Part shown: positions 1-26,656 of the stretch, piece after piece
Layout: the number at the start of each line of letters is the position of its first letter
How positions within the stretch are numbered: position 1 is the stretch's first letter
NCBI GenBank assembly: GCA_965229245.1
Contig: CBDDIW010000001.1
Coordinates: 650,372-714,371 of the forward strand
Direction: 5' to 3'
Source of the DNA: Verrucomicrobiales bacterium
Lineage (GTDB): Bacteria > Verrucomicrobiota > Verrucomicrobiia > Verrucomicrobiales > V1-33
Length of the DNA: 64,000 nucleotides
Position numbers and translations under genes: made by a program
The notes under the pieces: model-generated
Told to the model about the DNA's origin: nothing
Database searches by the model: none
The model's input: the letters and a program-made list of their open reading frames with translations, nothing else

Positions 1-428
1 ATGGTGCCGCGCTGCTCAAAGCCCGTGCGCATGAGGTACCGCGCGGACTCGTGCACGCCCACCTTTGCCGTCATACTGCGGATGACGCAGATCTTGTCCG
101 CGATCTTCGCCGTCTCCGGCAGGAAGGAGGTAAGCTGGAAACCGCCGGTGGTATCGATGATGTCCCCCGGGCCTTTGGAGGGGCCGGTCTTGGGATCGAA
201 GCTGTCGATCTGGCTGAGTCCCCCGGAAAGCTGGAGCATGATGACCGCCTTCGCTTTTCCAAAGCCTGGCCCCGCGGCGGCGGAAGCGGGAGTGGCTGGT
301 TTCGCCTCCTCCGCGGCGCTGGAGCGTCCGGGCAGGAAAGGCAGCACGCTGAGACCGAAGGCCGCGCGGGCCGCGCGCTCAATGAAAAGACGGCGGCTGA
401 ATTCGTCGGAATGGCGATGGATGTTCAT
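1..428 (-). CDS. DUF1501-family (sulfatase-like) protein with Tat signal; 3' end truncated by window start
   Basis: Minus-strand translation from ATG at 428..426 gives MNIHRHSDEFSRRLFIERAARAAFGLSVLPFLPG (twin-arginine signal), then a GGLSQIDSFDPK motif typical of DUF1501. It is not in the ORF track because no stop occurs before the window edge. DUF1501 proteins are the usual genomic partners of DUF1549/DUF1553 proteins. Confidence 0.6.
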   Translation of the reverse strand, partial: MNIHRHSDEFSRRLFIERAARAAFGLSVLPFLPGRSSAAEEAKPATPASAAAGPGFGKAKAVIMLQLSGGLSQIDSFDPKTGPSKGPGDIIDTTGGFQLTSFLPETAKIADKICVIRSMTAKVGVHESARYLMRTGFEQRGT

Positions 429-607
429 GACGGCAGAGGGTTGAGTGGCGTTTGTTGGTATTTTCTAAAATCTATTAATTACATTCAGCACCGGACCCGC
501 CGGAGTAAACCACGGTGAAATCCATTTACAGCAAGGCGTGAATTCATTTGATACTATTTTAAAGACGCGGACAGCAACCGGGACGCGTGGTCTTATCAGG
601 TGAATCA

Positions 608-813
608 GGCCCGGAGGGCCGCCGGAAATTAGCCGGTGGCGCAAGCCACCGGAAAGCTGAATAACAAACGCTCACAGCCCCGGAGGGGCGCTGGAATGTT
701 CGTCGCCCCGCATTCCCCAAGGGTTTCCATCGCCCCTGCCGGGGCTCCGAATCACTTGACGGAAGGTTCCGGTGGCTTGCGCCACCGGCTAATTTCCATC
801 GGCCCTCCGGGCC
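608..813. repeat. 206-bp element bounded by a 47-bp near-perfect inverted repeat (45/47); each arm holds a CCGGTGGC-GCAA-GCCACCGG hairpin with a GNRA tetraloop
   Basis: Left arm 608..654 is ggcccggagggccgccggaaattagccggtggcgcaagccaccggaa. The reverse complement of right arm 767..813 is identical except gccgcc versus gccgat. The element lies in the 450-bp gap between the DUF1549/DUF1553 gene and the DUF1501 gene. Confidence 0.7.
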
Positions 814-879
814 TTGCTCGTCCCTGACCTTCTCACGGACCATATAAGTTTCCTGTATATATTACCGGCTTTCCGGTAT

Positions 880-3033
880 TTATTGTATGAAAAGGAATTC
901 CCGGGAGTTGAGCAGCACCCAGGCGAGATCCGCCACCTCCATGCCGCTCTGGAGGGCGGCGGTGAATTTCCCGCGCTCCTGGTCCGAGGGCGGTCGGGCG
1001 AGGAAGGAATGGTAAAGCGAGTCCACCTTTTCCCCGGGCGTGCCGGCCTTCACGGCGGCGGCGAGGGCGGTGGAGCCACCGGTAATGACGGACTGCGCGG
1101 GGCCGTTCATGAGGCTGAGCATCTGCGGCACGCTGCCGTCCGTGGTGCTGGTATTCGACACCAGGCGGTCGCTCTGGCCGAAGAGGCGCAGGAAGTGATT
1201 CTCCGGCGCGGGCTGCGGCAGTTCCGAGGCCCGGGCGAGCACCAGTCCGGAGCGCACCAGCGGCTTCCCTCCTTCGTAAAAGACGGCCAGCGCGCGTGGA
1301 TTGATCTTGCCACCACCCTTTCCACCACCACCCGCGCCCCGCAGGGGACGGCCGCTGGAGCGCATCTCTTCGATCATCTTTTGCACGCTGGCGGCATTGA
1401 TCTCATTGGAGGCCAGCACGGTCTGGCGCAGGTCGTCCCCGCGGCGCAGCAGGCATTCATCGATGTCCGTGCCGGAGGCCAGGGTGAGGATGGAATCCCA
1501 TGCCTGCTCCGCGCTCATGCGGCGCAGCACGGGGCCGGGGAAGGCATATTGCTTCGGGTCCTCCGGCATGGGGGAGGGACGGCGCTGATAGGCGGCGGTA
1601 TTGAACAGAATGCGCTGAAACTCCCGCATGTCGAACTTCGCCTGCTTCATGTAAGTGGCGATGAACTGGAGCAGCTCCGGATTGCTCGCGCCCGACAGGT
1701 CATCGAGGTCGGACACCGGCTCCTGCACGGCGAGGCCGAAGGCTTTTTTCCACAACCGGTTCGCGATGGCGGCGGCGAACCGGGGATTGTCCGGATGGGT
1801 CATCCACTTCGCGAATTCATCCCGCAGCGCGGGCGGGTTCCCCAGGTTGATCTTATAAGCGGGACCGGCGGCATCGTTCTTCCCCCACTCGATGAGCGTG
1901 GGCGTGGTGGGCTCGCCGGGTTTGGCGTTCGGATACTTGTAGTCGGCGGGAAACTTGAGCGTGTTCCTCGTGAGGTCCACCAGATCGAAGGCATTGCCCG
2001 AGAGCACCTGATTCACCAGCCCCTTATCCGCCTGGGGAATGGCATCCGACCGCGTGAGGCGCCGGATTTTCCGGTAGGTATCCTCATGGTAGCCATCCGT
2101 GGCCCCGAAGAAGGCGGCCATGTTATAAAAGTCCTTTTGCGTCCACTGCGCGAAGGGGTGGTCATGGCACTGGGCGCAGGAGACATCCGCGCCAAGGAAG
2201 GTGGTGAGCAGATTCGAGACGCCATCCAGCGGCATCTGGGCGTCCCGCAGGAGGAAGCCGGACGCGCCATTCGTGTTCAGTTTGCCATCGGCCGTCAGCA
2301 TGTCCCGCACCATGGCATCCCACGGACGGTTCATGGCGATCTGGTCTTTCAGCCAGTCCTCGTAGAGATACGCCTTCGCGCCGCGACCGTAGTCGTCCTT
2401 CACCCGGAGCATGTCCGCCAGCCAGTTGAACATGTGCATGGTGTAGCCCGGGGAGTTGAGGAGCTGGTCGATCAGCACCGCGCGCTTGTCAGGAGCCTTG
2501 TCCGCCAGGAAGGTCTCCGCCTCGCGGTCCGTGGGGATGCGCCCGATGGCGTCCAGATACACGCGGCGGGCGAAGGTGGCATCGTCCGCCGGGGCGTTGG
2601 CGGCCATGTTGTTTTTCTTCAACGCGGCATCCACGGACTCATCCAGACGCGCGGCGGCTTTGGCGATGACCTCCCGGCTGAGCGGCGGGCGCGGCAGGAG
2701 GGACTTGCAGGCGAGCGCGAACTTCCGGTCCTCCGCGCCCAGCCGGGCCAAGGGAAAGCGGGAGGTCTTCCCGTCCTTTCCCTCCACGGTGAGGATGCCG
2801 TTTTCCAGGGCGAGGAATTTTGCCTCCACCGTGGCCCCTTCGGAGTCCGTCCATGTATGCCAGTCCGCCGCGGCCCCGGCGGGGACGGCCTCGTGATTCG
2901 GCGGCACGGGGCGCGCGGGAGCCTCGCGGGCCGGGCGGTTTCTTTTCCCTTTTTCGGGTGGCGCGGCGATGAGCAGCGCGGGCACCGCCAGGAGGGTGGC
3001 GGCCAGCGTGACGAGGGTATGGGAACGCTTCAT
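880..3033 (-). CDS. PSCyt2/PSD1 (DUF1549/DUF1553) domain protein, exported
   Basis: Contains the CAQCHDHPF motif (DUF1549 cytochrome-like) and a C-terminal LNSREFLF motif (DUF1553). Signal peptide MKRSHTLVTLAATLLAVPALLIAAPP. Start chosen at ATG 3033..3031, internal to the longer listed ORF 880..3255. Confidence 0.85.
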   Translation of the reverse strand: MKRSHTLVTLAATLLAVPALLIAAPPEKGKRNRPAREAPARPVPPNHEAVPAGAAADWHTWTDSEGATVEAKFLALENGILTVEGKDGKTSRFPLARLGAEDRKFALACKSLLPRPPLSREVIAKAAARLDESVDAALKKNNMAANAPADDATFARRVYLDAIGRIPTDREAETFLADKAPDKRAVLIDQLLNSPGYTMHMFNWLADMLRVKDDYGRGAKAYLYEDWLKDQIAMNRPWDAMVRDMLTADGKLNTNGASGFLLRDAQMPLDGVSNLLTTFLGADVSCAQCHDHPFAQWTQKDFYNMAAFFGATDGYHEDTYRKIRRLTRSDAIPQADKGLVNQVLSGNAFDLVDLTRNTLKFPADYKYPNAKPGEPTTPTLIEWGKNDAAGPAYKINLGNPPALRDEFAKWMTHPDNPRFAAAIANRLWKKAFGLAVQEPVSDLDDLSGASNPELLQFIATYMKQAKFDMREFQRILFNTAAYQRRPSPMPEDPKQYAFPGPVLRRMSAEQAWDSILTLASGTDIDECLLRRGDDLRQTVLASNEINAASVQKMIEEMRSSGRPLRGAGGGGKGGGKINPRALAVFYEGGKPLVRSGLVLARASELPQPAPENHFLRLFGQSDRLVSNTSTTDGSVPQMLSLMNGPAQSVITGGSTALAAAVKAGTPGEKVDSLYHSFLARPPSDQERGKFTAALQSGMEVADLAWVLLNSREFLFIQ

Positions 3034-11641: not shown

Positions 11642-12742
11642 TCACTGACGTTCGCTCATTTCCTGCTTCAGCCGGAGCTGGCCGCAGGCGGCGTCGATGT
11701 CATGTCCTTTTTCCCGGCGGATGGTGGCGGGGATGCCGGCGTTGTCCAGAACGGCGAGAAAGGCGTCCTGATCCGCCTCGGACGGCCGTGTCCATGGCAG
11801 GCCCTCCACGGTGTTGTAGGGAATGAGATTCACCTTCGCCTGAATGGACCGCGCCCGGCGCGCGAGGGCGGCGGCGTGTTCCGGGCGGTCATTCACATTC
11901 TCTATGAGGATATATTCGAGGGTGATTTTCTGCTTCTTCCGGTCCCGGAAATAAACCAGCGCGTCAAAGAGCTGGTCCAGTGGGTACTTCCGGTTCACGG
12001 GCATGATGACACTCCGCACTTCATCCGTGGCTCCGTGGAGGCTGATGGCCAGCCGCACGGGCATGGGGAAGTCCGCCAGCTTTTTGATCTGCGGCGCGAG
12101 CCCGCTGGTGGAAACGGTGATGTGCCGGGCTCCGATGCCGATGCCCCAGTCCGCCTGGATGATGCGGATGGCGCGGGAGAGATTCGTAAAATTCGCCAGC
12201 GGCTCGCCCATGCCCATGAAGACGATATTATCGATGCGGGAGCCGTCATACGCCTCCGCCTGGAGGATCTGCTCCACAATCTCGTCCGCCCGCAGATTCC
12301 GCGTAAACCCGGCCAGCCCGGAGGCGCAGAATTTACAGTCATAAGCGCAGCCCACCTGACTGCTCACGCAGATGGTGCGGCGGTCACTCTGCTCCCCGAA
12401 GGCTCCGCGATTGGCCGGAATGAGCACGCTCTCCACATAGCGTCCATCGTGCAGCCGGAAGAGGAATTTCCGGGTGGTATCCTTCGCGCCCTGCACCTTC
12501 GCGATCCGCATGGTGTGCAGGGGGTGCGTGGCTGTGAGCCGCGCGCGGAGGGACTTCCCCAGGCTGGTCATGGATTCATAGCCCGCCGCCCGCTTCTGGA
12601 AGACCCAGTCCAGGATCTGCTTTGCCCGGTAGCGGGGCTCCCCCCAGGACGCAAGCTCCTCCTCCAGCTCCTCCGGAAGCATTCCGGTAAGAGCGGGCGC
12701 GTCGGAGGGGGCAAGGGCTGGCGAACTGGCGGCGGTTTCCAC
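11642..12742 (-). CDS. rlmN: 23S rRNA (adenine2503-C2)-methyltransferase RlmN (radical SAM)
   Basis: 366 aa. Radical-SAM motif CAYDCKFCASG and the conserved RlmN C-terminal region (NLIPYN, ACGQL). Confidence 0.9.
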   Translation of the reverse strand: METAASSPALAPSDAPALTGMLPEELEEELASWGEPRYRAKQILDWVFQKRAAGYESMTSLGKSLRARLTATHPLHTMRIAKVQGAKDTTRKFLFRLHDGRYVESVLIPANRGAFGEQSDRRTICVSSQVGCAYDCKFCASGLAGFTRNLRADEIVEQILQAEAYDGSRIDNIVFMGMGEPLANFTNLSRAIRIIQADWGIGIGARHITVSTSGLAPQIKKLADFPMPVRLAISLHGATDEVRSVIMPVNRKYPLDQLFDALVYFRDRKKQKITLEYILIENVNDRPEHAAALARRARSIQAKVNLIPYNTVEGLPWTRPSEADQDAFLAVLDNAGIPATIRREKGHDIDAACGQLRLKQEMSERQ

Positions 12743-12855
12743 GATAAGTAATGGATCGCACGGCTGCCGCGGCGGCGAAAGCCGAAAGAACAGAGCAGTT
12801 TCTGTTTCCGGCTCCCGTCGGAAAGCGAGACAGGAAAAAGGAAAAGACCGGAGGA

Positions 12856-13845
12856 TTACCCGACGGTCACGCGCACGCCTTGGGTGGTGCCGATGACCCC
12901 CAGTTCCCGCGCGCCGGAGCCGGCGGCGAGGGCTTTCTCTTTATCCGCGGCCGGAACGATGACCACCCAGCCCCAGCCCATGTTGAACGTATGGAGCTGG
13001 CTCTCCGGATCACAGTGGCGGAGCACCTTCGGGATGGCTCCCAGAGTCCATTCCGGGATGGAAATGTCCGCGCCTTTTTCACCCAGGAAGCGCTCCAGAT
13101 TCTCCGGCAGCCCGCCTCCGGTGATGTGGGCCATGGCCTTGATATCACAGCCCGCGGCGCGCAGGGCGGCCACTTCCTCATGATACAGGGCGGTGGGGGC
13201 CAGCATTTCCCGGATCTCCTCGCGGGTGAAGTCCTCCGGATGCTCGCGCAGCACGCGGCGCACAAGGCTCCAGCCGTTGGCATGGAATCCGGCGGAGGGA
13301 TAGCCCACCAGCACGTCCCCGGGCTCCACGCGCTCCGGGTTGATGAGGTCCTTCTTTTCCACCGCGCCGATAGCGAAACCGCTGAGTTCGATGAGACCGT
13401 CCGGCACGATGCCCGGCATCTCCGCCGTCTCACCCCCGGCCAGGATGCAATCGCACGCGCTCAGCCAGTCCGTCATGCCGGCGATGAGGCGGGTGATCTG
13501 CGTTTTGTCGATGCGCCCGATACCGATGTAATCCAGGAACATAATGGGGTCCCCGCCCGTGGTGAGGACATCATTCACACTCATGGCCACCAGGTCCTTG
13601 CCCGCGGTCTCCAGTTCATCGTGCTCCAGCAGGAGCTCCAGCTTCGTGCCCACGCCATCGCAGCCGGTCACGATCACCGGCTCCTTATAGTCGCTCAGAT
13701 CATAGGCGGCGGCAAAGAGGCCGAAGGCACCGAAAAGCTTGCGTTTCGTCTCGGTGCGGCGGCGGAGTTCACCGAAGACATCCCCCACGAGGGCGGCGGC
13801 GGCTTTGGTATCGACTCCGGCTTCTTTGTAGGTGAGCTTGGCCAT
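12856..13845 (-). CDS. purM: phosphoribosylformylglycinamidine cyclo-ligase (AIR synthase)
   Basis: 329 aa. MAKLTYKEAGVDTKAAAAL N-terminus and the AIRS domain signature. Confidence 0.9.
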   Translation of the reverse strand: MAKLTYKEAGVDTKAAAALVGDVFGELRRRTETKRKLFGAFGLFAAAYDLSDYKEPVIVTGCDGVGTKLELLLEHDELETAGKDLVAMSVNDVLTTGGDPIMFLDYIGIGRIDKTQITRLIAGMTDWLSACDCILAGGETAEMPGIVPDGLIELSGFAIGAVEKKDLINPERVEPGDVLVGYPSAGFHANGWSLVRRVLREHPEDFTREEIREMLAPTALYHEEVAALRAAGCDIKAMAHITGGGLPENLERFLGEKGADISIPEWTLGAIPKVLRHCDPESQLHTFNMGWGWVVIVPAADKEKALAAGSGARELGVIGTTQGVRVTVG

Positions 13846-13905
13846 GCGGGAAAAAAGGTGCGGCTGGGAGGCAGGGGGGTGTTGTTGGGAGGAGAGGGGA
13901 AAAGA

Positions 13906-14643
13906 TCAGGCGAGGAGCTTGCTCTGGCCGCTGAGTTCGCGCCAGATGGAGCGGAAGAAATAATAGCCGTAGCCGTGCTCGCCATCGCCCTTCCAGTCCT
14001 GATCGTAGTGATGCGAACGGAAAAGAAAGCGCTCCGGGTGCGGCATGAGGCCAAAAACCCGGCCTGTCTCGTCCTGGAGGCCGGCGATGCGCTGGCTGGA
14101 GCCGTTCACATCGTCCTCGTATTGCAACGTCACGAGACCCTTCGCGAAGTATTCCTCCACCTTCCCCTCCGGAGCCACGAAGCGGCCCTCGGCGTGGGCG
14201 ATGGGGAGTTCCCACTCCTCCGGCAGTTCCGCCAGGAAGGGATTGTCCCGCTGCACGCTTTTCAGCTTCACCCACCGGCACTGGAAGCGCCCGCTGGCGT
14301 TGTCGATGAGGGAGCCCGTGGGCAGCACGCCGATCTTGCTGAGAATCTGGAAGCCGTTGCAGATCCCGAGCACATAGCCGCCGCCCGAGATGAAGTGCTC
14401 CAGGGACTGCCCCAGCCGCCGCTCCGTGACCAACTGGGCGATGCGCCCGGCCATGACGTAGTCCCCGTAGGAAAAGCCGCCGCTCATCACCACCAGTTGC
14501 GCCGCCTTCAGATGATCCGGCGTGACGAGGGAAATGGGCACGATGTTCGTGCCAAACCCGGCGGTCTTCAACGCACGGGAAGTCTCCGCATCACAGTTGG
14601 TCCCGGGGAATTTGATGAGCAAAGCTGAAGGCTGGGAGTTCAT
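13906..14643 (-). CDS. purQ: phosphoribosylformylglycinamidine synthase subunit PurQ (glutaminase)
   Basis: LLIKFPGTNCD N-terminus, catalytic GICNGFQ and HPER motifs. Start trimmed to ATG 14643 (the listed ORF extends to 14799). Confidence 0.85.
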   Translation of the reverse strand: MNSQPSALLIKFPGTNCDAETSRALKTAGFGTNIVPISLVTPDHLKAAQLVVMSGGFSYGDYVMAGRIAQLVTERRLGQSLEHFISGGGYVLGICNGFQILSKIGVLPTGSLIDNASGRFQCRWVKLKSVQRDNPFLAELPEEWELPIAHAEGRFVAPEGKVEEYFAKGLVTLQYEDDVNGSSQRIAGLQDETGRVFGLMPHPERFLFRSHHYDQDWKGDGEHGYGYYFFRSIWRELSGQSKLLA

Positions 14644-15015
14644 GAGGAACACCATTACAGGGGCGGGGGCAGGGCGAATGCAAGGGGAAGGTGACCAGGA
14701 GAAAAGCAGGCCCGGTCCGGGGAGCCGGTTGTTGACCGCTCCGTTCAGAGTCAGCTCAGCCCCCGCCGTCACGCCGGTCCACCGGGGCGATGAGCCCATA
14801 CCCGGAAATGGAGTTCCAAAGGCCCGAGCCGGATATAGCCAGAAACGGAGTCTTCTAGTTTCACTTACGGAGCCAGAGAGGGAAGTGTATAATTCCTCAT
14901 GATTTCAATAAACAGCTATGCCCCCGTGTTCACGGAAACCTTTCTTAATTATTTCCCTGGCATTTGATGGTCTCAAATTTAAATAAATTTGAAATAACAG
15001 AAGAAGCAGAATCAA

Positions 15016-15948
15016 ATGGCCCATATCACCTTCATTCATGGCATCTCCAATAAACCGGCGGCGGACCGGTTGTTGCGCATCTGGCTGGATTCCCTTACCG
15101 GGGGGACCGGCGGAATCGATCTGGACGCGGAAGGCGTCACCACTTCCATGATTTATTGGGCGGATGTTCTTTATCCGGAACCGGTCGCCGCGGAAGCCGA
15201 GTTCGTAAATGAAGCGAACACCGCGGAACTGCCCTCCGCCACCGATCCGAATATGAAATGGCGAGAGCATCTTTCCGGGGAGGAAAAAGCCATCACCGAC
15301 GCCCTGGCTGCCAAATTGAGCTTCGATGTGCTTACCGAGGACACCTATGTGCCACCGGTGACCGCGATGGATGCCCAGCTTGAACGAATTCCCCTCCCCT
15401 GGTTTGTAAAACGCCGGGTCATGAAGGAATTCCTTCGTGATGTCCATCACTACCTCTTTAACGAAACCTCCTCACCCCGGCCCGGAGTTTCCTATAAGGT
15501 AAGAGATGAAATCAGAAGTCGAACCATCGCCGCCCTCCAGGCAGGCTCCTCGAAACCGGGCCCGCACCTTCTCGTAAGCCACAGCATGGGGACAGTCATC
15601 GCCTACGATTGTCTCAAGCGGGTTCCGGAATGCCCGGCGGTGGATGGCCTGATGACTGTCGGAAGTCCTCTCGGGATTGATGAAATCCAGGACAAACTCA
15701 AGCCTGAATGGTCTCGCGCCAACGGCTTTCCCTCAAAAGTAAAAGGGGGATGGATCAATATTTATGACAGCCTCGACCCGGTCACGGGTTTTGACGGAAA
15801 CATTGCCAATGACTTCAAGAAAGACGGCCGTGAGGAAGTGGAGGTAATCAATGAACAGAACTACGGCGCCTGGCGGCATGATATCGTCAAGTACCTGGCG
15901 GGCACAAAGCTCCGGGCAAGCCTGGGACGTTTGCTTTCCGGCCTCTAA
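15016..15948 (+). CDS. alpha/beta-hydrolase fold protein, lipase/esterase-like (gene A of candidate three-gene system)
   Basis: 310 aa. ITFIHGI oxyanion-hole-like motif and LVSHSMGT nucleophile elbow (GxSxG). Candidate acid (IYDSLDP) and His (AWRHD) residues. GC is markedly lower than the flanks. Confidence 0.7.
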   Translation: MAHITFIHGISNKPAADRLLRIWLDSLTGGTGGIDLDAEGVTTSMIYWADVLYPEPVAAEAEFVNEANTAELPSATDPNMKWREHLSGEEKAITDALAAKLSFDVLTEDTYVPPVTAMDAQLERIPLPWFVKRRVMKEFLRDVHHYLFNETSSPRPGVSYKVRDEIRSRTIAALQAGSSKPGPHLLVSHSMGTVIAYDCLKRVPECPAVDGLMTVGSPLGIDEIQDKLKPEWSRANGFPSKVKGGWINIYDSLDPVTGFDGNIANDFKKDGREEVEVINEQNYGAWRHDIVKYLAGTKLRASLGRLLSGL

Positions 15949-15962
15949 CCCCCCCTCGACCC

Positions 15963-17612
15963 ATGGCGTGGAATTCGATTACCTTCAATCAGGAGCTGTC
16001 CTCTGCCGCCGGCACTTTTAATTTGGCCGCCGTCTCAGAGTTGTGCGGACAGTTAATCAAACACCTTAACGAAACAGGAGATCCTTATCCTTCAGATGAT
16101 GCCTCGGCGGCAATGTCAATCCTGCGCCGGAAAAGGTATTTCAGTCTCATGATGAAAGTAGGCGCGGCTTTTATGATGACGGGCCGCGCCTCCCTGAAAG
16201 TAATTCGTTTGTTTGCTCAGGCGCAGATCGATGACGGGGATGTCGCCGCCGGGTTGATCACTCTACATGATCTGGCCGCCAAGGCGGAGCTACTCGGGCA
16301 TCAAGGCGAATTGAACGAAGCCCGGGGCTTGATCGGCCGGGCGCATAAGCAGTATTATGTAACCACCGAAGGAAACGCCCCTCACCGGCTGGAACACTTG
16401 AAAAAGTCTCTGAAAGCCTATTTGGAGGTTTATAGCACGTTGCCGGAGAAATGCCTGTGGCACGGGATCAACAGCGTGGCTCTGCTCAGGCGGGCTGAGC
16501 GCGAATCCGTGGACTGTCCTGTTTTCGTGGATCCCGAAACCATCGCGAAACAGATTTTTTCCGTGATTTCCCACTTGAGAGAACCGGTGGAAGTGTGGGA
16601 TTGCGCCACCGCCATGGAAGCCAGCCTGGCTTTGGGGGATCTGAAAAATGCGGGGGCCTGGCTTGAACGGTATGTGGCTCATCCTGACGGGGACGCGTTT
16701 GAACTTGCCAGCACTCTGCGTCAGTTGGAAGAGGTCTGGCAACTGGACTCCGCGCAGGGAGCCGGGCAGTTACTGTTACCGGTTCTCCGGGCTCACCTTC
16801 TCGCGAAGGAGGGTGGAGCGGTGGATATGTCTCTTTCCGAAATGAGGAAATCCGCCGCGGTCTCCCCGCCCCAGGCGTCTGACTTTGAAAAGGTCTTTGG
16901 AACTGACTCCTATAAGGCGCTTGAATGGTTTCGCAAAGGATTGCGGCGGGCCAGGCTTGTGGGCCGCATCGGCAGAACCTCCACCGAGGGACACGGCACG
17001 GGTTTTGTCCTTCTGGGGAAGACGCTCTCTCCAGTGTGGGGCGAAAGTTCAATCCTTCTTACCAACAGCCATGTGGTTTCCGATAATCCGGAGATCTGCA
17101 AACAGGGGGCGCTCCACCCCTCGGAGGTAGTCGTCACCTTTGAGGCCCTTGGAAACGGGGAGGAATATACGGTGGACCTGCTTTGGACCTCCCCTCCCGA
17201 CAAACTGGACGCCACGGTTCTGCTCCTTAAGGATACCTCGAAGCTCGCCCCCCTTTTGACGGATGATCACGCGAAAATAGCGACCGGCCTGCCGCTACTC
17301 AATGATTACGCCCGTGTATATATTATCGGGCATCCCCAGGGAGGAGGCTTGAGTTATTCCCTCCAGGACAATCTGCTGCTGGATCACGAAGATCCTCTGC
17401 TCCACTACCGGGCACCCACGGACCACGGGAGTTCAGGCAGTCCGGTATTCAACGCCAACTGGGATTTCATCGGGCTCCACCATAAGGGCAGCGAGACCAT
17501 GCGGAGATTAAATAAAAAACCGGGCACCTACCCGGCGAACGAAGCCATCTGGCTTCAGGCTGTCATTTCTGAATTGAAAACCCATCCGCCGGCACCCCCG
17601 GCCTCCACTTGA
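15963..17612 (+). CDS. trypsin-like (chymotrypsin-fold) serine peptidase with an about 330-aa N-terminal alpha-helical (TPR-like) domain (gene B)
   Basis: 549 aa. The C-terminal about 200 aa carry His (LLTNSHVV), Asp (DKLDATVLLL) and Ser (DHGSSGSPVF) in canonical order and spacing. The N-terminal region is predicted helical with no recognised motif. Starts 14 bp after gene A. Confidence 0.75.
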   Translation: MAWNSITFNQELSSAAGTFNLAAVSELCGQLIKHLNETGDPYPSDDASAAMSILRRKRYFSLMMKVGAAFMMTGRASLKVIRLFAQAQIDDGDVAAGLITLHDLAAKAELLGHQGELNEARGLIGRAHKQYYVTTEGNAPHRLEHLKKSLKAYLEVYSTLPEKCLWHGINSVALLRRAERESVDCPVFVDPETIAKQIFSVISHLREPVEVWDCATAMEASLALGDLKNAGAWLERYVAHPDGDAFELASTLRQLEEVWQLDSAQGAGQLLLPVLRAHLLAKEGGAVDMSLSEMRKSAAVSPPQASDFEKVFGTDSYKALEWFRKGLRRARLVGRIGRTSTEGHGTGFVLLGKTLSPVWGESSILLTNSHVVSDNPEICKQGALHPSEVVVTFEALGNGEEYTVDLLWTSPPDKLDATVLLLKDTSKLAPLLTDDHAKIATGLPLLNDYARVYIIGHPQGGGLSYSLQDNLLLDHEDPLLHYRAPTDHGSSGSPVFNANWDFIGLHHKGSETMRRLNKKPGTYPANEAIWLQAVISELKTHPPAPPAST

Positions 17613-17618
17613 TTTCCT

Positions 17619-18998
17619 ATGCAACCTCTTGAGATCGCACCGGCCCCTCCCGCTACTCCGGCTCCCGTTAATGTCACTTATCCGCTGAAGATCTTTCTCA
17701 GCCACAAACTGGGCCCATCCAAAGCGAAAGCGGAGCGGATCGCCGCGGCTCTGTCGCTTTTTGCCGGGGATAAACTCAGGATCACTTGCTCAGCCACGTT
17801 TGCCAAGGGCATTGACTGGGAGGAGACTATAAAGAGGGAATTGAAAGCCGCCCATTGGTTTATTCTGATCTATGACGGACCTGACGTGAACCACGACTGG
17901 TGCCTTTTTGAGGCGGGCTTTTTCCTTGCCAACGATCCCGGCAGGAAATTGATCTGCCTTCATGATCCAAGACACAGTCTGCCTCCTCCTTTGAGACAAT
18001 TTGTGGACGTGCCCGCCCGTGCCGAAGAGGTCATGAGCCTGTTCCAGGAAATTTATTTCAATCCTCCATGGGCGATCAAACCGGAACTGCTGCTGGCAAA
18101 TGGCCCTCTTCCCGATTATGTCAACCGCATCGTAAAGGAGATCAATGGCCAGGATATTCTTTCTCAATTCACCCTCTCCCCCACCTTTACTTTCCAAATA
18201 AGGAACGAAAACATTTCCCTGCTGAGTGAAGGCATTATCGACGACAACGCCGAGATCAGTGGAGACGGTGCCTGGGAAGCCATATTTGGAAAACCGGATG
18301 CCACCATCTCGTGGACATGGAAAGGCATCACCGACGGATTAGATGACTGGCAGGCATGGGCATACCAGCTCGCGGGCATGATGGCCGAGGCGATCACCAC
18401 AATATCCGTGAACAACCCCTCGACAGCATTGCGCGTACGCCTTAAAAACGGACAGGAATCTATTTACAGAGTCCTGATCCGGCGCATGGAGAGAACAACG
18501 GAAGCATACCGGTTCACCTTCGGAGCCGCTGAGATTGTGACCTCATACCGTCCGGGGGACGCGGCAAGCCGGACGAAAATATTTCATCTTTATAACCTCG
18601 CATGGTTTTTCAAAGAAAATTTCCTGAAGACTCATCTCGCCGCGCTTGAAGAGCAGGTTCTCATGAAGGCTCTTCCTCCGGACTTTCTCCCCAAAAGGAT
18701 CAAAAATATCCGGGATGACCTTAAAGCCCTGCACGCTGAAGCCCAGGTTCGGGGCATAGAAGACAATGCCCGGGTGGTCAATGCTTTCCGACCGGAGTTG
18801 AGGGCTCCGGTGGCAGCCGCGTTGCAGGAAACCTGGCCCTTGCTCGACCAGGCTTTGCAGGAGGCCTGCTCCGCGGCAAAGCCGTCGCTGACCGCCCTGA
18901 TCAAGGCACTGAGGGAGATGAAGCCCATCAACACTTTTTTTCTGAAGAGTTGCCTTGAAGAATTGCAGGTTCTCGAAGAACTCCCTGGCGCGGGGTGA
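17619..18998 (+). CDS. TIR-domain protein with an about 280-aa C-terminal domain of unknown function (gene C)
   Basis: 459 aa. Residues about 20-180 have the KIFLSHK beta-A motif and a W-C-L-F-E-A-G motif matching the conserved (S)xWCxxE of TIR domains, which contains the catalytic Glu. Starts 6 bp after gene B. Confidence 0.7.
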   Translation: MQPLEIAPAPPATPAPVNVTYPLKIFLSHKLGPSKAKAERIAAALSLFAGDKLRITCSATFAKGIDWEETIKRELKAAHWFILIYDGPDVNHDWCLFEAGFFLANDPGRKLICLHDPRHSLPPPLRQFVDVPARAEEVMSLFQEIYFNPPWAIKPELLLANGPLPDYVNRIVKEINGQDILSQFTLSPTFTFQIRNENISLLSEGIIDDNAEISGDGAWEAIFGKPDATISWTWKGITDGLDDWQAWAYQLAGMMAEAITTISVNNPSTALRVRLKNGQESIYRVLIRRMERTTEAYRFTFGAAEIVTSYRPGDAASRTKIFHLYNLAWFFKENFLKTHLAALEEQVLMKALPPDFLPKRIKNIRDDLKALHAEAQVRGIEDNARVVNAFRPELRAPVAAALQETWPLLDQALQEACSAAKPSLTALIKALREMKPINTFFLKSCLEELQVLEELPGAG

Positions 18999-19067
18999 CT
19001 GGAGGTAGAGAGAAGGCTCCTTTCGCGGCCTCAGCGCGGCTTTGCTTTCCGCCGGGTTTCCTTTAAG

Positions 19068-22269: not shown

Positions 22270-22444
22270 CCTGGCCGTCCCGGAAAACGACATCGCATCG
22301 GCACGCACTACAGAAACCGGTTAGCCGGACACCAGTGATTTCAAACCGCCGCCACGGGAGTTCCCACGTTTGCGGGTCTTTCGCGCGCTTTAGGCGGCAC
22401 GGTGTGCCGGTCTCTTGTCTCACCCCCATTTCACAAATCCCCCC

Positions 22445-25400
22445 ATGATTCTGAAGCTCCTCCCCGCCATTGTCCTGCTGCCCTCGTTTCTTCACGCCCG
22501 CCCGTTTGAGAATATGTCGAGTGACGGCAAAACCCCGGATGGCTGGGAGGGAAACCCCGCGTGCTGGCGGGTGGCGGATGGCATCCTCACCGGGGAGATC
22601 AAGGAGGGCACCACCCTGGACCGCAATGAATGGTTCTTCATGAACCAGGAGACGGGGGACTTTGAATTGACCGTGGAATACCGCATCACCGGCGGCCCCA
22701 CCGCCAACAGCGGCATCCAGATCCGCAGCCGGCGGGATGCCAAAGGCCAGGCCAGCGGGCTCCAGTGTGATCTGGACGATGGCAAGGAATGGCTGGGCCG
22801 CATCTATGATGAGCACGGGCGCGCGCTGGTGATGGAGCGGGGCACGCGCGTGTCCATCGCCCCGGACGGCCGCCGCTGGGCAGATCCCTTCGCGGACCCG
22901 AAGTCCTTCACAAAAATCGCGAAGAAGGATGACTGGAACACCTATCGCATCAAGGCCACCGGCTCCCACGTGCAGGTCTGGATCAACGGTGTCTTCTTTG
23001 GCGCGCTGGATGACCACGAGTCGAAGGCGGCGGAATACAGCGGGAAAATCGCCTTCCAGCTCCACGCCGGGGCGGGTCCGGCGAAGGTGGAATTCCGGAA
23101 CTTCAATCTTCTGGACAAAGGAAAGACCGACCCGCCCGCGGGAGCCAAAACCGTGGCCGAAGACAAACCGGACGACGTTTTCCACCCCTCCAGCGCGGAC
23201 GGCAAGCCGCTGAATCTCGGCTTTGAAAAAGGGAATCTGGATGGCTGGACCGCGGAGGGTGATGCCTGGGAGAGCCAGCCCATCAAGGGCGACACCGTGT
23301 CCCCCCGGAAGCCGGGGCAGGCCAGCCGCCACGCGGGGCAATACTGGATCGGCGGCTACGAGCCGAAACTGACGGATGCCGGCACGGGCAAGCTGACCTC
23401 CGTCCCTTTCGAGGTGACGCATCCCTGGGCCAGCTTTCTCGTGGGGGGCGGTGGCGAGGTGGCCTCCGTGCGGGTGGAGATCGTGGACGCGGAGACGGGG
23501 AAAATCTTCCACACCGCCGCTGGGCGCTTTGAGGAGGACATGCACCGGGAGGTGGTGGATATGCGGCCCATGAAGGGGAAGAAGGTTTTCCTCCGCCTCA
23601 TCGACCGCGCGAAAGGCGGCTGGGATCACCTGAACTTTGACGACTTCGCCTTCCACAACGAACCACCGGCGAAGGCCGTGGCGGAGGGCAGCCGCCAGAC
23701 GCAGAGCCCCGTGCTCTGGCACCTCCAGCCGAATCCCGCGAAGCCCACCGCCATTCAAAATCCGGAGGCGCAAAAGACCGTGGCCACCATGATGCTCACC
23801 AGCGGCTTCCAGGCGGAACTCATCGCCGCCGAGCCGGAGGTGCGCCAGCCCATCGCTTTCACCATCGACGAAAAAGGACGCCTCTGGATTCTGGAGGGCT
23901 ACAGCTATCCTAACAAACAACCGGAGGGCCAAGGGAAGGACCGGATCATCGTGCTCTCGGACCAGGATGGGGACGGGGTGTTCGAGACCCGCCGGGTCTT
24001 CGCGGAGGGGATCAATCTGGGGAGCGGCATCGAGGTGGGGTTCGGCGGGGTCTTCGTGGGCGCGGCCCCGGAGCTGCTGTTCTTCCCCGCCAGCACCCGG
24101 GACGACCAGGTGGCCGCCGGGCCGCCGAAGGTGCTCCTGGACGGCTGGGGCTATCAGGACACGCACGAGACCCTGAACAGCTTTTCCTGGGGGCCGGACG
24201 GCTGGCTCTACGGCTGCCATGGCGTCTTCACCACCTCCTATGTGGGCAAGCCGGGAACCGCGAAGGAAGGGCGCGTGCCGCTGCACGCGGGCGTGTGGCG
24301 CTACCACCCGGTGAAGGGGGAATTCGAAGTCTTCGCCCACGGCGGGAGCAATCAATGGGGGCTGGACTACAATGAAGCCGGCGACCTTTTCATGACCCAC
24401 TGCCGGAGCTTTTTCGGCGGCGGCGGCACCACCTATGTCATCCGCAACGGGCACTACTGGAACCAGGCGAACGCTGGCTACGCGCCGTTCATTTCCAACA
24501 GCGGCCCGGACTTCGCCCCGGACCTGAAGAACTACCTGCCCGCCGCCGCGCTCTATGACAGCGGCGAGGGTGGCGCGGGAAAACCCGGCACCACGGCCAT
24601 CTATGGCGGGCACTCCCACGTGGGCACCATGATTTACCAGGGCACGAACTGGCCGGAGATCTACCGGGGCCACCTTTTCACGCACAATCTCCACGGGCAC
24701 CAGATGAACCACCAGGAGAACGTGCGGTCCGGCTCCGGCTATGAGACCATGCACGCCGGGGCGGATCTCCTCCACGCGCCGGACCCCCGCTACATGGCGG
24801 TGGACCTCCAGAGCGGCCCGGACGGAGCGGTCTATACCATCGACTGGTTTGACCAGCAGCACTGCCACACACCCATCGAGGAAAAGTGGGACCGGAGCAA
24901 CGGGCGGGTGTATCGCGTCTCATGGGCGGCCACCTACAAACCGGTGAAAGTGGATCTCTCGGGGGAAAGTGATGAAGCCCTCGCGAAGCTCCAGAATCAC
25001 GCGGACGAATGGTACCGCCGTAACGCCCGCCGCCTGCTCATGGAGCGCGCGGCCACGCGTCCCCTGGATGAGCGGGCTGTCCCGGTACTCCGTGACCTGG
25101 CGGGTAACGCCGGGATGGAGCCATCCTTGCGCGGCCTGTGGACCCTCGCGCAGTGCAATCTTCTGACAAAGCGGGAGATCACGCTCGCGGCCCGCAATGA
25201 CAACGCCCCCACCCGCGCCTGGGCCGTGAGGCTGGCCACGGAAAAGGGAGCGAAGGATCTGCTGGATCCCGCGATCCTCCTGAAGCTGGCGAAGGAGGAT
25301 CCCGCGCCCGCCGTGCGCCTGGCCCTCGCCTCCGGCCTGCCCTCCCTGCCAAATGACCAATGCTGGGAAATCGTGACCGCGCTCGCCGCCCACGTCGAAG

Positions 25401-26656
25401 ACGATAAAGACCGTTTCCTGCCGAAGCTCATCTGGACCGGATTCGCCCCCGTGGCGAAAACCGACTGGCCGCGCGCCCTCGCCCTGGCCGCCACCACCCC
25501 GCTGCACGAGCTGGCGGACAGCATCCGCTGGTATGCCGCGCAGGACGCCGCCGGGCGTGAAGCCCTGGCCTCCGCCGCCGCCGGACAATCCGCCATCAAA
25601 GCCGGCCGCGCGGTGAGGATCGCCGCCTTTGCCCTGCGGGACGAGGCCACGCTCACTCCTCCCGCCTCCGCGGAGGCCGCCATGAAAGCCCTGGGCGAAA
25701 ACCCGGAACCCGCCGTGCTGGCCGCCGCGAATGAGCTGGCCGCCACCTTTGGCGACAAGGACGTGCTGGGCCGCATGCGCGCGGTGCTCGCGGATGCGAA
25801 CGCGCCGCTGGGAGAAAGGAAGTCCGCCTTTGCCCTGCTGAAGCGCACCGGGGATAAAGAGGCCCTGGGGGTTTTTGCCACCCTGCTGGATAACGCGGCT
25901 TTCCGCTCCGCCGTCATCCCGCTCCTGGGCCGGAGCGACGACCCCGCGGTGGCCACCGCCCTGCTGGAACGGTATGCGAACCTCTCCGTGAATGACCGCA
26001 ACGCGGCGCTCGCCGCCCTGACCAGCCGCGCCCCGTTGGCGCTCACGCTGGTGAAGGCCATGGCCGCGGGCACCTTTGACAAGAAGCAGCTCACGGCGGT
26101 GCACATCCGCCAGATGCGGAATCTCGGCAGCGCGGAGCTGAACACCCTGCTCGAAAAGACCTGGGGGAAATTCAATCCGTCCTCCGAAGCCTCCAAAGCC
26201 ACGATCGCCAAATTCAAGAAGCTTTACAACGAGGCCCCGCTCTGGGCCTACGATGCCGGGAAGGGCCGCGAGGTCTTCACCCGCGTGTGCGGCGCGTGCC
26301 ATGCCTATGGCCAGGGCGAGGCCCGCGTTGGGCCCAACTTGGGAGGCACCTGGCGCAATGGCGTGGACTACTTCCTAGAGAACATCGCGGACCCGAACGC
26401 GGTCATTGGCGATGACTTCCAGCTCACCATCATCACGAAAAAGGATGACACCGTGTATGCGGGGATCGTGGAAAAAGAGACGGACACCGCGGTGGTGCTG
26501 CGGACACTCACGGAATCTGTTAGTATCCCGAAAGCGGATAATAATATCAAATCCCGTGAGAAACTGCAACAAAGCCTCATGCCGCCGGGCCTTTTGGAGT
26601 CCATGTCGGAGCGGGAAGCCCTTGAGTTGTTGAAGTTCCTGTCCACACAGCAGTAA
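22445..26656 (+). CDS. large exported fusion protein: DUF1080 (3-keto-disaccharide hydrolase-like) domain, then PVC-type membrane-bound-dehydrogenase beta-propeller with HEAT repeats, then C-terminal CxxCH cytochrome c domain
   Basis: 1403 aa from ATG 22445 (signal peptide MILKLLPAIVLLPSFLHA). DUF1080 block (WRVADGILTG, IAFQLHAG), long helical repeat region, heme motif VCGACHAYG and C-terminal LMPPGLLESMSEREALELLKFL, typical of the Planctomycetes/Verrucomicrobia heme-binding dehydrogenase family. Confidence 0.8.
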   Translation: MILKLLPAIVLLPSFLHARPFENMSSDGKTPDGWEGNPACWRVADGILTGEIKEGTTLDRNEWFFMNQETGDFELTVEYRITGGPTANSGIQIRSRRDAKGQASGLQCDLDDGKEWLGRIYDEHGRALVMERGTRVSIAPDGRRWADPFADPKSFTKIAKKDDWNTYRIKATGSHVQVWINGVFFGALDDHESKAAEYSGKIAFQLHAGAGPAKVEFRNFNLLDKGKTDPPAGAKTVAEDKPDDVFHPSSADGKPLNLGFEKGNLDGWTAEGDAWESQPIKGDTVSPRKPGQASRHAGQYWIGGYEPKLTDAGTGKLTSVPFEVTHPWASFLVGGGGEVASVRVEIVDAETGKIFHTAAGRFEEDMHREVVDMRPMKGKKVFLRLIDRAKGGWDHLNFDDFAFHNEPPAKAVAEGSRQTQSPVLWHLQPNPAKPTAIQNPEAQKTVATMMLTSGFQAELIAAEPEVRQPIAFTIDEKGRLWILEGYSYPNKQPEGQGKDRIIVLSDQDGDGVFETRRVFAEGINLGSGIEVGFGGVFVGAAPELLFFPASTRDDQVAAGPPKVLLDGWGYQDTHETLNSFSWGPDGWLYGCHGVFTTSYVGKPGTAKEGRVPLHAGVWRYHPVKGEFEVFAHGGSNQWGLDYNEAGDLFMTHCRSFFGGGGTTYVIRNGHYWNQANAGYAPFISNSGPDFAPDLKNYLPAAALYDSGEGGAGKPGTTAIYGGHSHVGTMIYQGTNWPEIYRGHLFTHNLHGHQMNHQENVRSGSGYETMHAGADLLHAPDPRYMAVDLQSGPDGAVYTIDWFDQQHCHTPIEEKWDRSNGRVYRVSWAATYKPVKVDLSGESDEALAKLQNHADEWYRRNARRLLMERAATRPLDERAVPVLRDLAGNAGMEPSLRGLWTLAQCNLLTKREITLAARNDNAPTRAWAVRLATEKGAKDLLDPAILLKLAKEDPAPAVRLALASGLPSLPNDQCWEIVTALAAHVEDDKDRFLPKLIWTGFAPVAKTDWPRALALAATTPLHELADSIRWYAAQDAAGREALASAAAGQSAIKAGRAVRIAAFALRDEATLTPPASAEAAMKALGENPEPAVLAAANELAATFGDKDVLGRMRAVLADANAPLGERKSAFALLKRTGDKEALGVFATLLDNAAFRSAVIPLLGRSDDPAVATALLERYANLSVNDRNAALAALTSRAPLALTLVKAMAAGTFDKKQLTAVHIRQMRNLGSAELNTLLEKTWGKFNPSSEASKATIAKFKKLYNEAPLWAYDAGKGREVFTRVCGACHAYGQGEARVGPNLGGTWRNGVDYFLENIADPNAVIGDDFQLTIITKKDDTVYAGIVEKETDTAVVLRTLTESVSIPKADNNIKSREKLQQSLMPPGLLESMSEREALELLKFLSTQQ

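Follow-up and report, generated by a model that had tools for sequence, protein, structure and literature searches.

Background

Thoeris, as it is now defined, comprises a TIR signal generator together with any signal-activated effector; types I-XI have been verified and 29 configurations predicted (bioRxiv 10.64898/2025.12.03.692087). In the verified type VIII, the TIR protein ThsB is combined with ThsI, a CMP hydrolase-TPR protein, and the signal is canonical cADPR (Yirmiya et al., bioRxiv 10.64898/2025.12.03.692087). The authors presume that the TPR of ThsI perceives cADPR, and they equate it with the TPR that Burroughs and Aravind (2020) predicted for TIR signalling. Type VII combines a TIR protein with the SLATT effector ThsH and likewise uses canonical cADPR (bioRxiv 10.64898/2025.12.03.692087). 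In type IV, the caspase-like effector ThsE is activated by N7-cADPR (10.1101/2024.10.24.620036).

Proteases also act within other defence systems. Hachiman, AVAST, Lamassu, DRT and canu include nuclease-protease pairs in which the protease cleaves its partner and thereby renders it active (bioRxiv 10.1101/2025.07.28.667249). VMAP / MoxR-vWA ternary conflict systems pair an alpha/beta-hydrolase with a caspase, and trypsin-NucA effector couplings have been described as well (Kaur et al., eLife 2020, PMC7159879).

Cassette layout and genomic setting

The window, i.e. the whole stretch of 64,000 nucleotides of Verrucomicrobiales DNA analysed here, contains three co-directional ORFs on the plus strand, encoding proteins A (15016-15948, 310 aa), B (15963-17612, 549 aa) and C (17619-18998, 459 aa). 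The ORF coordinates confirm the gaps of 14 bp (A-B) and 6 bp (B-C), and thus the single operon, that an earlier note on this DNA had described. The GC content of the cassette is ~0.50-0.57 vs 0.64-0.69 around it; since the tight operon lies inside one low-GC island, we regard A, B and C as horizontally acquired, and as acquired together. Significant homologues exist for all three proteins (~2000 for A, >1855 for B and 10 for C), so the ORFs are more than chance.

The left edge of the island is an AT-rich intergenic region (14800..15015, GC 0.49-0.53 vs 0.64 upstream), presumably with divergent promoters for gene A and for a PurQ-like gene, which lies on the minus strand. A promoter scan of this region gave a sole consensus match, a minus-strand one that does not exceed shuffles. 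At the right edge, directly 3' of C, there is a terminator-like hairpin (19023..19039, plus strand), and from 19001 onward the GC content is up to 0.66-0.69; the terminator reading is only suggestive, because the regional count of such sites is not above shuffles. The flanks of the island are housekeeping genes (LutB/C, RlmN, PurM-like, PurQ-like, OmpA-family and MutY), with no defence island seen in the flanks within the window. Neither an NTPase nor a SIR2, SLOG or cyclase gene was found within the low-GC island, in line with the earlier note, and PADLOC 2023 had no model matching A, B or C. A search of IMG/VR viral contigs for relatives found none.

The A-B pair

Protein B consists of an N-terminal helical domain of the TPR-S / MAP3K_TRAF_bd type and a C-terminal S1 serine protease, an architecture that was identical in 120/120 homologues among the matches listed. 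Its TPR-S core (PF20308; aa 79-175, 16197..16487, plus strand) scores 32.3 bits and passes the Pfam cut-off of 27.6 bits. We take the TPR of Burroughs and Aravind's 2020 prediction to be this same Pfam TPR-S; both the TPR-S and the pYEATS model reportedly come from that work. Invariant columns in the core are R126, K129, Y132, Y153 and W166-H-G-I-N170, to which R253, Q254, E257 and W259 slightly downstream can be added; that these residues are polar or aromatic suggests a ligand pocket. The Trypsin_2 domain (aa 345-505, 16995..17477, plus strand; Pfam E 1.5e-18) carries the catalytic residues H370, D416 and S491 (in GSSGSP), unchanged across 31 homologues. By profile comparison, its nearest solved relatives are the S1B endopeptidases SplB, V8 glutamyl endopeptidase, the exfoliative toxins and FAM111A; the protease resembles such endopeptidases of narrow specificity.

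Protein A is a lipase-like alpha/beta hydrolase without any Pfam family. Its triad of Ser190 (in SHSMG), Asp251/254 and His288 is invariant, and the oxyanion-hole HG is found at residues 8-9. An acidic insertion (aa 53-128, 15172..15399, plus strand) is part helical and part disordered, with a predicted pLDDT <50 at aa 64-75, 104-109 and 115-123. It differs in length and sequence among homologues, with E90 and E123 being invariant and E64 nearly so. We consider it a candidate lid or propeptide, and also a candidate cleavage target of B.

We surveyed A-B in 80 loci/genomes drawn from 207 species hits in many phyla. B lies directly 3' of A in 76/80 loci, and in two Planctomycete loci both form a single polyprotein, one composed of A, TPR-S, Trypsin_2, Trypsin and Endonuclease_NS (L042), the other of A, TPR-S, Trypsin_2 and Metallophos (L073). 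A and B are an obligate pair and, judging from these loci, probably one functional unit. Since extra effectors (nuclease, phosphoesterase) are appended in the fusion proteins, the toxin might be something other than A, with A acting as a cofactor. The pair is widespread yet unstudied; it is spread patchily over at least seven phyla at 48-70% identity. Among the genes near it are TIR, nSTAND1, CHAT, patatin and AbiE. A pYEATS gene adjoins the closest A-B relative, and L003/L009, the closest relative on a long contig, is without a partner gene.

TIR genes beside A-B

TIR_2 is the most frequent Pfam family among co-directional A-B neighbours. TIR ORFs are present in 30/80 A-B loci; the other 50/80 have none within 8 kb, so that A-B is apparently able to work without an adjacent TIR. 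The density of TIR genes depends on the distance from A-B, with 13.3 per 100 kb at <=0.5 kb and 0-1.2 per 100 kb at 6-8 kb, and 10/10 sampled TIR matches near A-B were above the Pfam cut-off. Their architectures are unrelated and include bare TIR domains of 155-220 aa. L036 and L080 repeat the order A-B-TIR, as does, by jackhmmer only, L078; in L066, TIR and A are fused in one protein. Taken at the level of domains, these neighbourhoods argue for a functional link between TIR and A-B.

On the other hand, the exact A-B-C trio was not found outside this window: a C homologue occurred in none of the 80 A-B loci (0/80), and A or B in none of 12 other C-family loci (0/12). The conserved module is A-B, not the A-B-C set put forward in the earlier note, and its TIR partner is interchangeable. 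The co-occurrence check which that note had proposed as a refutation goes formally against the exact trio, which does not recur and whose flanks in this window are housekeeping genes; a functional link between TIR and A-B is nevertheless supported at the domain level.

Protein C and its relatives

Protein C, a rare TIR "alarm" protein, contains a TIR domain (aa 23-147, 17685..18059, plus strand) with a WCLFE motif, then a PAS-like alpha/beta domain (aa 189-305, 18183..18533, plus strand) and then a C-terminal four-helix bundle (aa 312-454, 18552..18980, plus strand). A disordered linker (aa 178-185) lies between the TIR and the C-terminal parts. The WCxxE motif is near-invariant in the family, and Glu98 is the putative catalytic residue. 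The PAS-like domain presumably serves as a trigger-sensing or regulatory module, the helical bundle as an oligomerisation or transmission module. The assignments given in the earlier note for A (alpha/beta hydrolase), B (S1 protease with intact triad plus a helical domain) and C (TIR with a catalytic Glu) are all borne out. Its "unknown" C-terminal domain of C resolves into a PAS-like domain and a four-helix bundle.

The C family comprises only 10 clusters among 5.8 billion sequences and 58 representatives among 1.84 billion, and its C-terminal domain is joined to differing TIR subfamilies (TIR_2, CAP12-PCTIR_TIR). C homologues adjoin SLATT/DUF4231 genes in L006, L008 and L089/L090, which suggests that the signal of the family is read by SLATT effectors. 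One homologue shares its operon with ThsB_TIR and Peptidase_C14 (L005), another adjoins a TPR-S protein different from B (L096), and patatin genes are also among the neighbours; in L007 there is no obvious adjacent effector. C thus appears to be a modular signal generator whose family associates with Thoeris-type effectors (SLATT, caspase, TPR-S).

Proposed mechanism and alternatives

We favour, with somewhat better than even confidence, the interpretation of the cassette as a Thoeris-like TIR-signalling abortive-infection/defence system built from two mobile modules. C would, like ThsB, both sense infection and generate the signal: on detecting an infection cue, its PAS-like/helical-bundle C-terminus would license the TIR (Glu98), which would then make from NAD+ a small nucleotide signal, likeliest a cADPR isomer and possibly canonical cADPR. 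Binding of this signal to the TPR-S of B would switch on the fused S1B-like serine protease. As the executioner, this protease would most probably cut the disordered acidic lid of A, which as the zymogen substrate would become active as a lipase or esterase-like hydrolase; the protease may cut other cell proteins too. In the end the infected cell would stop growing or die, and the function would thus presumably be anti-phage. The order of sensor, protease and hydrolase is the one already suggested in the earlier note; we infer the direction of information flow.

Two independent systems might instead lie side by side, with A-B sensing an invader protein or other cue via its TPR and C being a single-gene TIR NADase, no signal being exchanged. 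Most A-B loci (50/80) indeed have no TIR nearby, the closest long-contig relative lacks a partner gene, the C homologue of L007 has no obvious effector, and C has a sensor-like C-terminus of its own; moreover, SpbK-type TIR proteins are reported to be NADases acting alone (PMC12847820). We nevertheless consider this arrangement unlikely. The B-C gap is just 6 bp and the GC dip is common to both, TIR genes are concentrated beside A-B with a density decaying with distance, a TIR-A fusion exists, and a second C-family gene adjoins a different TPR-S protein. In addition, the type VIII effector, whose response to a TIR signal is verified, contains a TPR that we take to be TPR-S.

The order might also be reversed, in that B senses the trigger via its TPR and cleaves off the PAS-like/helical region of C, whereupon the TIR depletes NAD+, with A as a second protease-activated effector. 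Effectors activated by neighbouring trypsin-like proteases are documented (10.1101/2025.07.28.667249), TIR is an NAD-depleting effector in CBASS, Pycsar, SPARTA and Avs (bioRxiv 10.64898/2025.12.03.692087), the linker of C is disordered, and the L042 and L073 fusions imply proteolytic release of appended effectors. However, the TIR partners of A-B differ widely and the bare TIRs offer nothing to cleave, the SLATT and caspase effectors found with C homologues are known TIR-signal receivers, and TPR-S is the presumed receiver in type VIII; we regard this order as improbable. Least credible, and in our view very improbable indeed, is a non-immune module of regulatory or metabolic proteolysis and lipid turnover, e.g. 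in PAS-sensed stress signalling. Housekeeping flanks, the absent PADLOC match and the physiological sensing typical for PAS-like domains would fit it; against it stand the patchy occurrence of A-B and the atypical GC of the island here, the neighbours of A-B (TIR, nSTAND1, CHAT, patatin, AbiE), its fusion to a non-specific endonuclease (L042), and the SLATT, caspase and patatin genes adjoining C homologues.

Comparison with known systems

The pairs of Hachiman, AVAST, Lamassu, DRT and canu are like A-B in that a hydrolytic effector lies directly upstream of a trypsin-like protease to which a sensing/defence domain is fused, but those pairs have an MBL-fold nuclease as the partner, whereas in the cassette it is an alpha/beta hydrolase whose cleavage is only proposed. 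The trypsin-NucA couplings (PMC7159879) resemble the L042 fusion; VMAP / MoxR-vWA systems use another peptidase class, MoxR, vWA and VMAP are absent from the cassette, and the hydrolases are likened by description.

B resembles the TPR-S systems that Burroughs and Aravind (J Bacteriol 2020;202:e00365-20) predicted, which reportedly use a TPR scaffold for NAD+-derived, TIR-made signals with varied effectors, and type IV Thoeris shares with our proposal a TIR-made nucleotide that leads to a protease executioner. The protease of type IV has, however, a caspase fold and that of B belongs to the PA clan (serine), and in the cassette the sensor is TPR-S and a partner hydrolase is present. The novelty would be smaller if Burroughs and Aravind (2020) already describe the hydrolase/TPR-S-trypsin pair or the TIR-PAS-like family. 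Type VII has a SLATT effector as found next to C homologues, but a SLATT gene is absent from this window. In type VIII, as in the cassette, the TIR gene adjoins an effector with a TPR as the presumed signal receiver; its head is a CMP hydrolase and that of B an S1 serine protease, the TPRs being likened by description. Unlike type VIII, the cassette has an obligate second gene, A, and its TIR protein carries the PAS-like and helical C-terminus; no sequence similarity was detected between the TIR of C and one verified type VIII TIR. The earlier note's verdict "not Thoeris" nonetheless does not hold, given the broad definition of Thoeris and the TPR-S in B, and the cassette most likely represents Thoeris-type anti-phage immunity and not a wholly new kind of system.

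Gene cassette and its genomic environment

The cassette consists of three ORFs on the plus strand, as the earlier note had described: gene A for an alpha/beta hydrolase (15016-15948, 310 aa), gene B for a protein combining a TPR-S domain with an S1 serine protease (15963-17612, 549 aa) and gene C for a TIR protein with a PAS-like part and a helical bundle (17619-18998, 459 aa). The gaps between them measure 14 bp (A/B) and 6 bp (B/C). The three ORFs coincide with a sharp low-GC island at about 14.6-19.0 kb, in which GC is 0.49-0.57 against 0.64 upstream and 0.66-0.69 downstream. Both flanks are of housekeeping type, with LutB and LutC followed by RlmN, PurM-like and PurQ-like amidotransferase genes on the minus strand (11645-14799) upstream, and genes for an OmpA-family protein, MutY and a giant DUF7133 protein downstream. 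The 1413-aa ORF at 22415-26656 (plus strand) carries 3keto-disac_hyd, DUF7133 and HEAT_2 domains together with a weak cytochrome c match, an architecture typical of Planctomycetota and Verrucomicrobiota; the host probably belongs to the PVC group. Two plus-strand ORFs, at 11702-12751 (349 aa) and 12751-14628 (625 aa), were considered as unknown neighbours and discarded as antisense artefacts of the minus-strand RlmN, PurM-like and PurQ-like genes; long antisense ORFs are typical of high-GC DNA. A search of the window for tRNA genes and integration sites revealed no tRNA gene. Because of the GC island, the housekeeping flanks and the lack of a tRNA gene in the window, the cassette looks like an isolated three-gene insertion that was gained in one piece. 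Promoter and terminator scans of the region gave matches no more frequent than in shuffled sequences.

The hydrolase and the protease

For protein A we found no curated family: Abhydrolase_6 stays below threshold in Pfam, neither NCBIfam nor PADLOC yields a match, and a PDB sequence search returned no relative. Its 2011 homologues (about 2000 sequence clusters) are nearly all unnamed. The protein has the fold, the nucleophile elbow and the Ser-Asp-His triad seen in the alpha/beta-hydrolase superfamily, and the invariant positions comprise H8-G9 (oxyanion hole), S190 within S-H-S-M-G, D251/D254 and H288. The hydrolase assignment made from the sequence alone is hence retained, while the elbow reads SHSMG rather than GHSMG. 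Residues 53-128 form a variable acidic insertion that is partly disordered; comparison of the homologues showed E90 and E123 to be invariant and E64 nearly so. A is better conserved than B, with 68-70% identity to the two closest relatives versus 48-55% for B.

Protein B, annotated only as "serine protease", matches TPR-S (PF20308) with 32.3 bits (Pfam cut-off 27.6) and Trypsin_2 with an E value of 1.5e-18. Its homologues number more than 1855, and TPR-S is joined to Trypsin_2 in every one of the 120 among the matches listed; many homologues also match MAP3K_TRAF_bd/DUF4071. The triad residues H370, D416 and S491 follow the canonical His-Asp-Ser order and are invariant in the homologues. The Trypsin_2 profile, the invariant triad and S1B structure matches confirm the S1 peptidase assignment. 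By profile, the nearest proteins to the protease part are the S1B endopeptidases SplB, V8 glutamyl endopeptidase, exfoliative toxins and FAM111A, which are enzymes of narrow specificity. The TPR part contains invariant polar and aromatic residues (R126, K129, Y132, Y153, W166-H-G-I-N170, R253, Q254, E257 and W259), a cluster that we regard as a putative ligand pocket. Some B homologues of 907-917 aa (P0046 and P0118 among them) carry a fused CbiA/ParA-type NTPase domain. Scans of viral contigs with B, and likewise with C, found no relatives.

A rare family of TIR proteins

The family of C is rare, with 10 clusters among 5.8 billion sequences, and a search with its C-terminal 325 residues yields no more than 58 representatives out of 1.84 billion. 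The majority of these 58 are about 440-470 aa long; as the match begins around residue 105-165, there is space for a further domain at the N-terminus. In the cases checked, this domain is of TIR type (TIR_2, with CAP12-PCTIR_TIR in one variant). The AF2 model of C (pLDDT 80) falls into three parts, a TIR-like domain at aa 23-147, a PAS-like alpha/beta domain at aa 189-305 and a helical bundle at aa 312-454. Foldseek matched the TIR domains of SARM1, RUN1 and TRAM as well as the PAS domains of FixL and LOV proteins. The window's own copy reaches TIR_2 with an E value of 4e-5, which is below the cut-off, and PF13676 is found in homologues. Residues W94, C95 and E98 of the WCLFE motif are at least 90% conserved. 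The TIR domain with its catalytic-glutamate motif is thus borne out by the predicted fold, the PF13676 matches of homologues and the conservation of E98. A PDB sequence search with C returned no relative.

Conservation of the hydrolase-protease pair

Using A as query, we obtained hits in 207 species and fetched 80 loci, one genome per species. The species hits span Verrucomicrobiota, Acidobacteriota, Bacteroidota, Proteobacteria, Actinomycetota, Planctomycetota and Gemmatimonadota, and the closest A-B relative lies in a Verrucomicrobiae MAG. B directly follows A in 76 of the 80 loci; of the four loci in which it does not, two are truncated by the end of a contig. A homologue of C was found in none of the 80. 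Therefore, the A-B pair is the conserved unit. Conversely, none of the 12 C-family loci outside the window contained A or B. Conserved co-occurrence of all three genes, which had been expected of a defence operon, is not seen: among these 80 A-B loci and 12 other C-family loci, the exact trio is confined to the window.

In two Planctomycete MAGs, A and B are part of one polypeptide with appended effector domains. One protein (L042:7983-12782, 1599 aa) consists of A, TPR-S, Trypsin_2, a second Trypsin domain and Endonuclease_NS, the other (L073:8001-12131, 1376 aa) of A, TPR-S, Trypsin_2 and Metallophos. Polyproteins of this kind imply that they process themselves and set the appended effectors free.

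At L001 (5998-7997) and L002, JGI metagenome loci with the closest A-B relative, a 101-aa prokaryotic YEATS protein (PF20305) and a 230-aa protein are encoded directly upstream of A-B, and an AbiEi/AbiEii pair lies just downstream. The N-terminus of the 230-aa protein is weakly TIR-like (jackhmmer E 0.0018), and its homologue at L036 matches Pfam TIR_2 with an E value of 0.0029. In some loci an extra TPR-S protein is encoded right after A-B, for example a 446-aa MAP3K_TRAF_bd/TPR-S protein at L010:5711-7048.

TIR genes in the vicinity of A-B

The top Pfam family among co-directional neighbours of A-B is TIR_2 (four downstream, four upstream), followed by TPR-S/MAP3K_TRAF_bd. TIR ORFs were surveyed with a jackhmmer profile seeded with the TIR domain of C (domain E < 1e-5), and the hits were validated by Pfam; an HMM built from C-family TIR domains alone had turned out too narrow for other TIR proteins. 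In this survey, 30 of the 80 A-B loci contained a TIR ORF, and all 10 sampled matches exceeded the Pfam TIR_2 cut-off. The architectures of the sampled neighbours are unrelated (bare TIR, ThsB-like, X-TIR, ParA-TIR and TIR-nSTAND1-WD40). Distance from A-B served as an internal control: TIR density is 13.3 per 100 kb at less than 0.5 kb and drops to 0-1.2 per 100 kb when the distance reaches 6-8 kb. The gene order of the window, with a TIR gene following A and B after a minimal gap, is seen again in L036 and L080 and, by jackhmmer only, in L078. At L040, a ParA-TIR protein adjoins A-B.

A single ORF in an Acidobacteria MAG (JAKEER010000040.1; L066:6230-7678) fuses TIR_2 (aa 4-120, E 4e-23) to an A-family hydrolase; no B gene was found downstream of it. 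This fusion is a Rosetta-stone link between TIR and hydrolase. As to known defence genes in the surroundings, neighbours across the related A-B and C loci include TIR, nSTAND1, CHAT, patatin, AbiE, SLATT and caspase genes; the flanks in the window are housekeeping genes. For the cascade proposed below, the main caveat lies in the 50 of 80 A-B loci that have no TIR gene nearby; A-B may also respond to other inputs.

Partners of the C family

C homologues adjoin SLATT/DUF4231 proteins in L006, L008 and L089/L090, and patatin genes lie near them in L005, L006 and L007. At L005:4987-11222, a patatin gene (657 aa) is followed by the C homologue, then by ThsB_TIR (134 aa), Peptidase_C14 (317 aa) and an unknown protein of 163 aa; this operon is type IV Thoeris-like, with an additional C-family TIR protein. 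At L096, the C-family gene (2631-2951) is separated by 355 bp from a divergent gene (249-2276, minus strand) for a 676-aa protein with TPR-S (76 bits), MAP3K_TRAF_bd and unannotated N- and C-terminal regions. The C family is thereby paired with TPR-S in two independent loci, the window and L096. Considering the SLATT, Peptidase_C14 and TPR-S neighbours of its homologues, C behaves as an exchangeable TIR unit that is combined with effectors of Thoeris type.

At L089 (2092-7609) and L090, co-directional genes encode an S1-P1 nuclease, a DUF900-like alpha/beta hydrolase (322 aa), a 459-aa protein without Pfam match, DUF4231/SLATT_3 (148 aa) and the C homologue. The set may be a TIR system with several effectors, and it again includes an alpha/beta hydrolase.

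A proposed signalling cascade

In the order of events that we consider most likely, infection would be detected via the PAS-like and helical part of C, and its TIR domain would convert NAD+ into a signal, with a cADPR-type molecule as the best guess. A signal of this type is favoured because the two partner classes of the C family, SLATT and presumably also TPR-S, receive cADPR in verified systems. The TPR-S domain of B would bind the signal and thereby switch on the protease, which would cut the acidic lid of A, and possibly other targets, to release the lipase-like hydrolase. That A is inactive until cleaved is suggested by circumstantial evidence, namely its disordered acidic insertion with invariant glutamates and the A-B polyprotein fusions.

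A more far-reaching reading is that A-B may constitute a widespread, unrecognised class of Thoeris effectors, in which a TIR-produced nucleotide is read by TPR-S, which activates a sequence-specific S1B-type protease and, through it, a zymogen of a lipase-like hydrolase, the trigger here being an undescribed TIR-PAS-like-helical-bundle family. We advance this tentatively and consider it rather doubtful as a whole. If true, it would amount to a two-step cascade from nucleotide to protease to hydrolase, for which bacterial TIR immunity has so far offered no demonstrated case. Confirmation of the proposed cascade would extend the growing Thoeris family by an effector pair of serine protease and hydrolase and assign a function to two large unannotated families, one without any Pfam family (A) and one known only as "serine protease" (B). 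It would also provide a second, independent effector for asking whether TPR-S is the receptor of cyclic ADP-ribose-type signals, a question that connects TIR signalling in bacteria, plants and animals. Ready hypotheses on proteolytic effector release are offered by the natural fusions (A-B-nuclease, A-B-phosphoesterase and TIR-A), and the C family, whose partners come from at least three classes of effector (SLATT, caspase and TPR-S), gives a handle on how TIR sensors and effectors are matched. Being abundant, unannotated and absent from PADLOC 2023, with natural fusions that hint at a cascade of proteolytic steps, the A-B module is a good experimental lead.

Comparison with known defence systems

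No PADLOC system model (v2.0.0, 2023) fits any of the three proteins: A had no match, B only weak matches to generic protease models (E of at least 2.6e-4), and C reached TIR-TM with an E value of 0.05. NCBIfam scans of A, B and C gave nothing useful, and a literature search combining DUF4071 with TIR returned irrelevant matches only. The domain-centric screen published in NAR in 2026 does not mention trypsin or TPR effectors.

For Thoeris, 29 configurations have been predicted and types V-XI verified (Yirmiya et al., bioRxiv 10.64898/2025.12.03.692087). Canonical cADPR is used by type VII (TIR and SLATT) and by type VIII (TIR and ThsI, a protein with CMP hydrolase and TPR parts), and the TPR of ThsI presumably perceives cADPR according to the authors (10.64898/2025.12.03.692087). 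B differs from ThsI in carrying Trypsin_2 and no CMP-hydrolase domain, so that the TPR-type sensor alone is common to both; BLASTP of the TIR domain of C against a verified type VIII TIR detected no similarity. In type IV Thoeris, the TIR product can activate a protease (10.64898/2025.12.03.692087), which is caspase-like (Peptidase_C14), whereas B is an S1 serine protease. In the accessible part of the supplementary tables of the same study, "Caspase - Type IV" is the sole protease effector class and no trypsin or peptidase class appears (10.64898/2025.12.03.692087).

The arrangement of A and B resembles pairs in Hachiman and AVAST, in which a trypsin-like protease cleaves and so activates a hydrolytic proenzyme whose gene lies just upstream of its own (10.1101/2025.07.28.667249); there the upstream gene encodes an MBL-fold nuclease, here an alpha/beta hydrolase. 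In other conflict systems, Kaur et al. 2020 (PMC7159879) described an alpha/beta hydrolase that is obligately paired with a caspase, as well as trypsin-NucA couplings; they do not name TPR-S.

With the broad Thoeris group (types I-XI), the cassette shares a TIR protein with catalytic glutamate (C) and an operonic effector, since B ends 6 bp before C, its TPR-S domain being a presumed receiver by analogy with type VIII. A link from TIR to TPR-S was predicted in 2020 by Burroughs and Aravind, as cited in 10.64898/2025.12.03.692087. Because this link is now partly verified and TIR-to-protease signalling is known, the cassette is not categorically new. Of the novel defence operon originally envisaged, the domains and the coupling of A to B are supported, but neither the trio as a conserved set nor its separation from Thoeris: with a TIR protein and an operonic TPR-S effector, the cassette falls within Thoeris-type logic. 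It is best filed under TIR-signalling defence, as an uncharacterised, widespread effector pair combined with a rare TIR sensor family.
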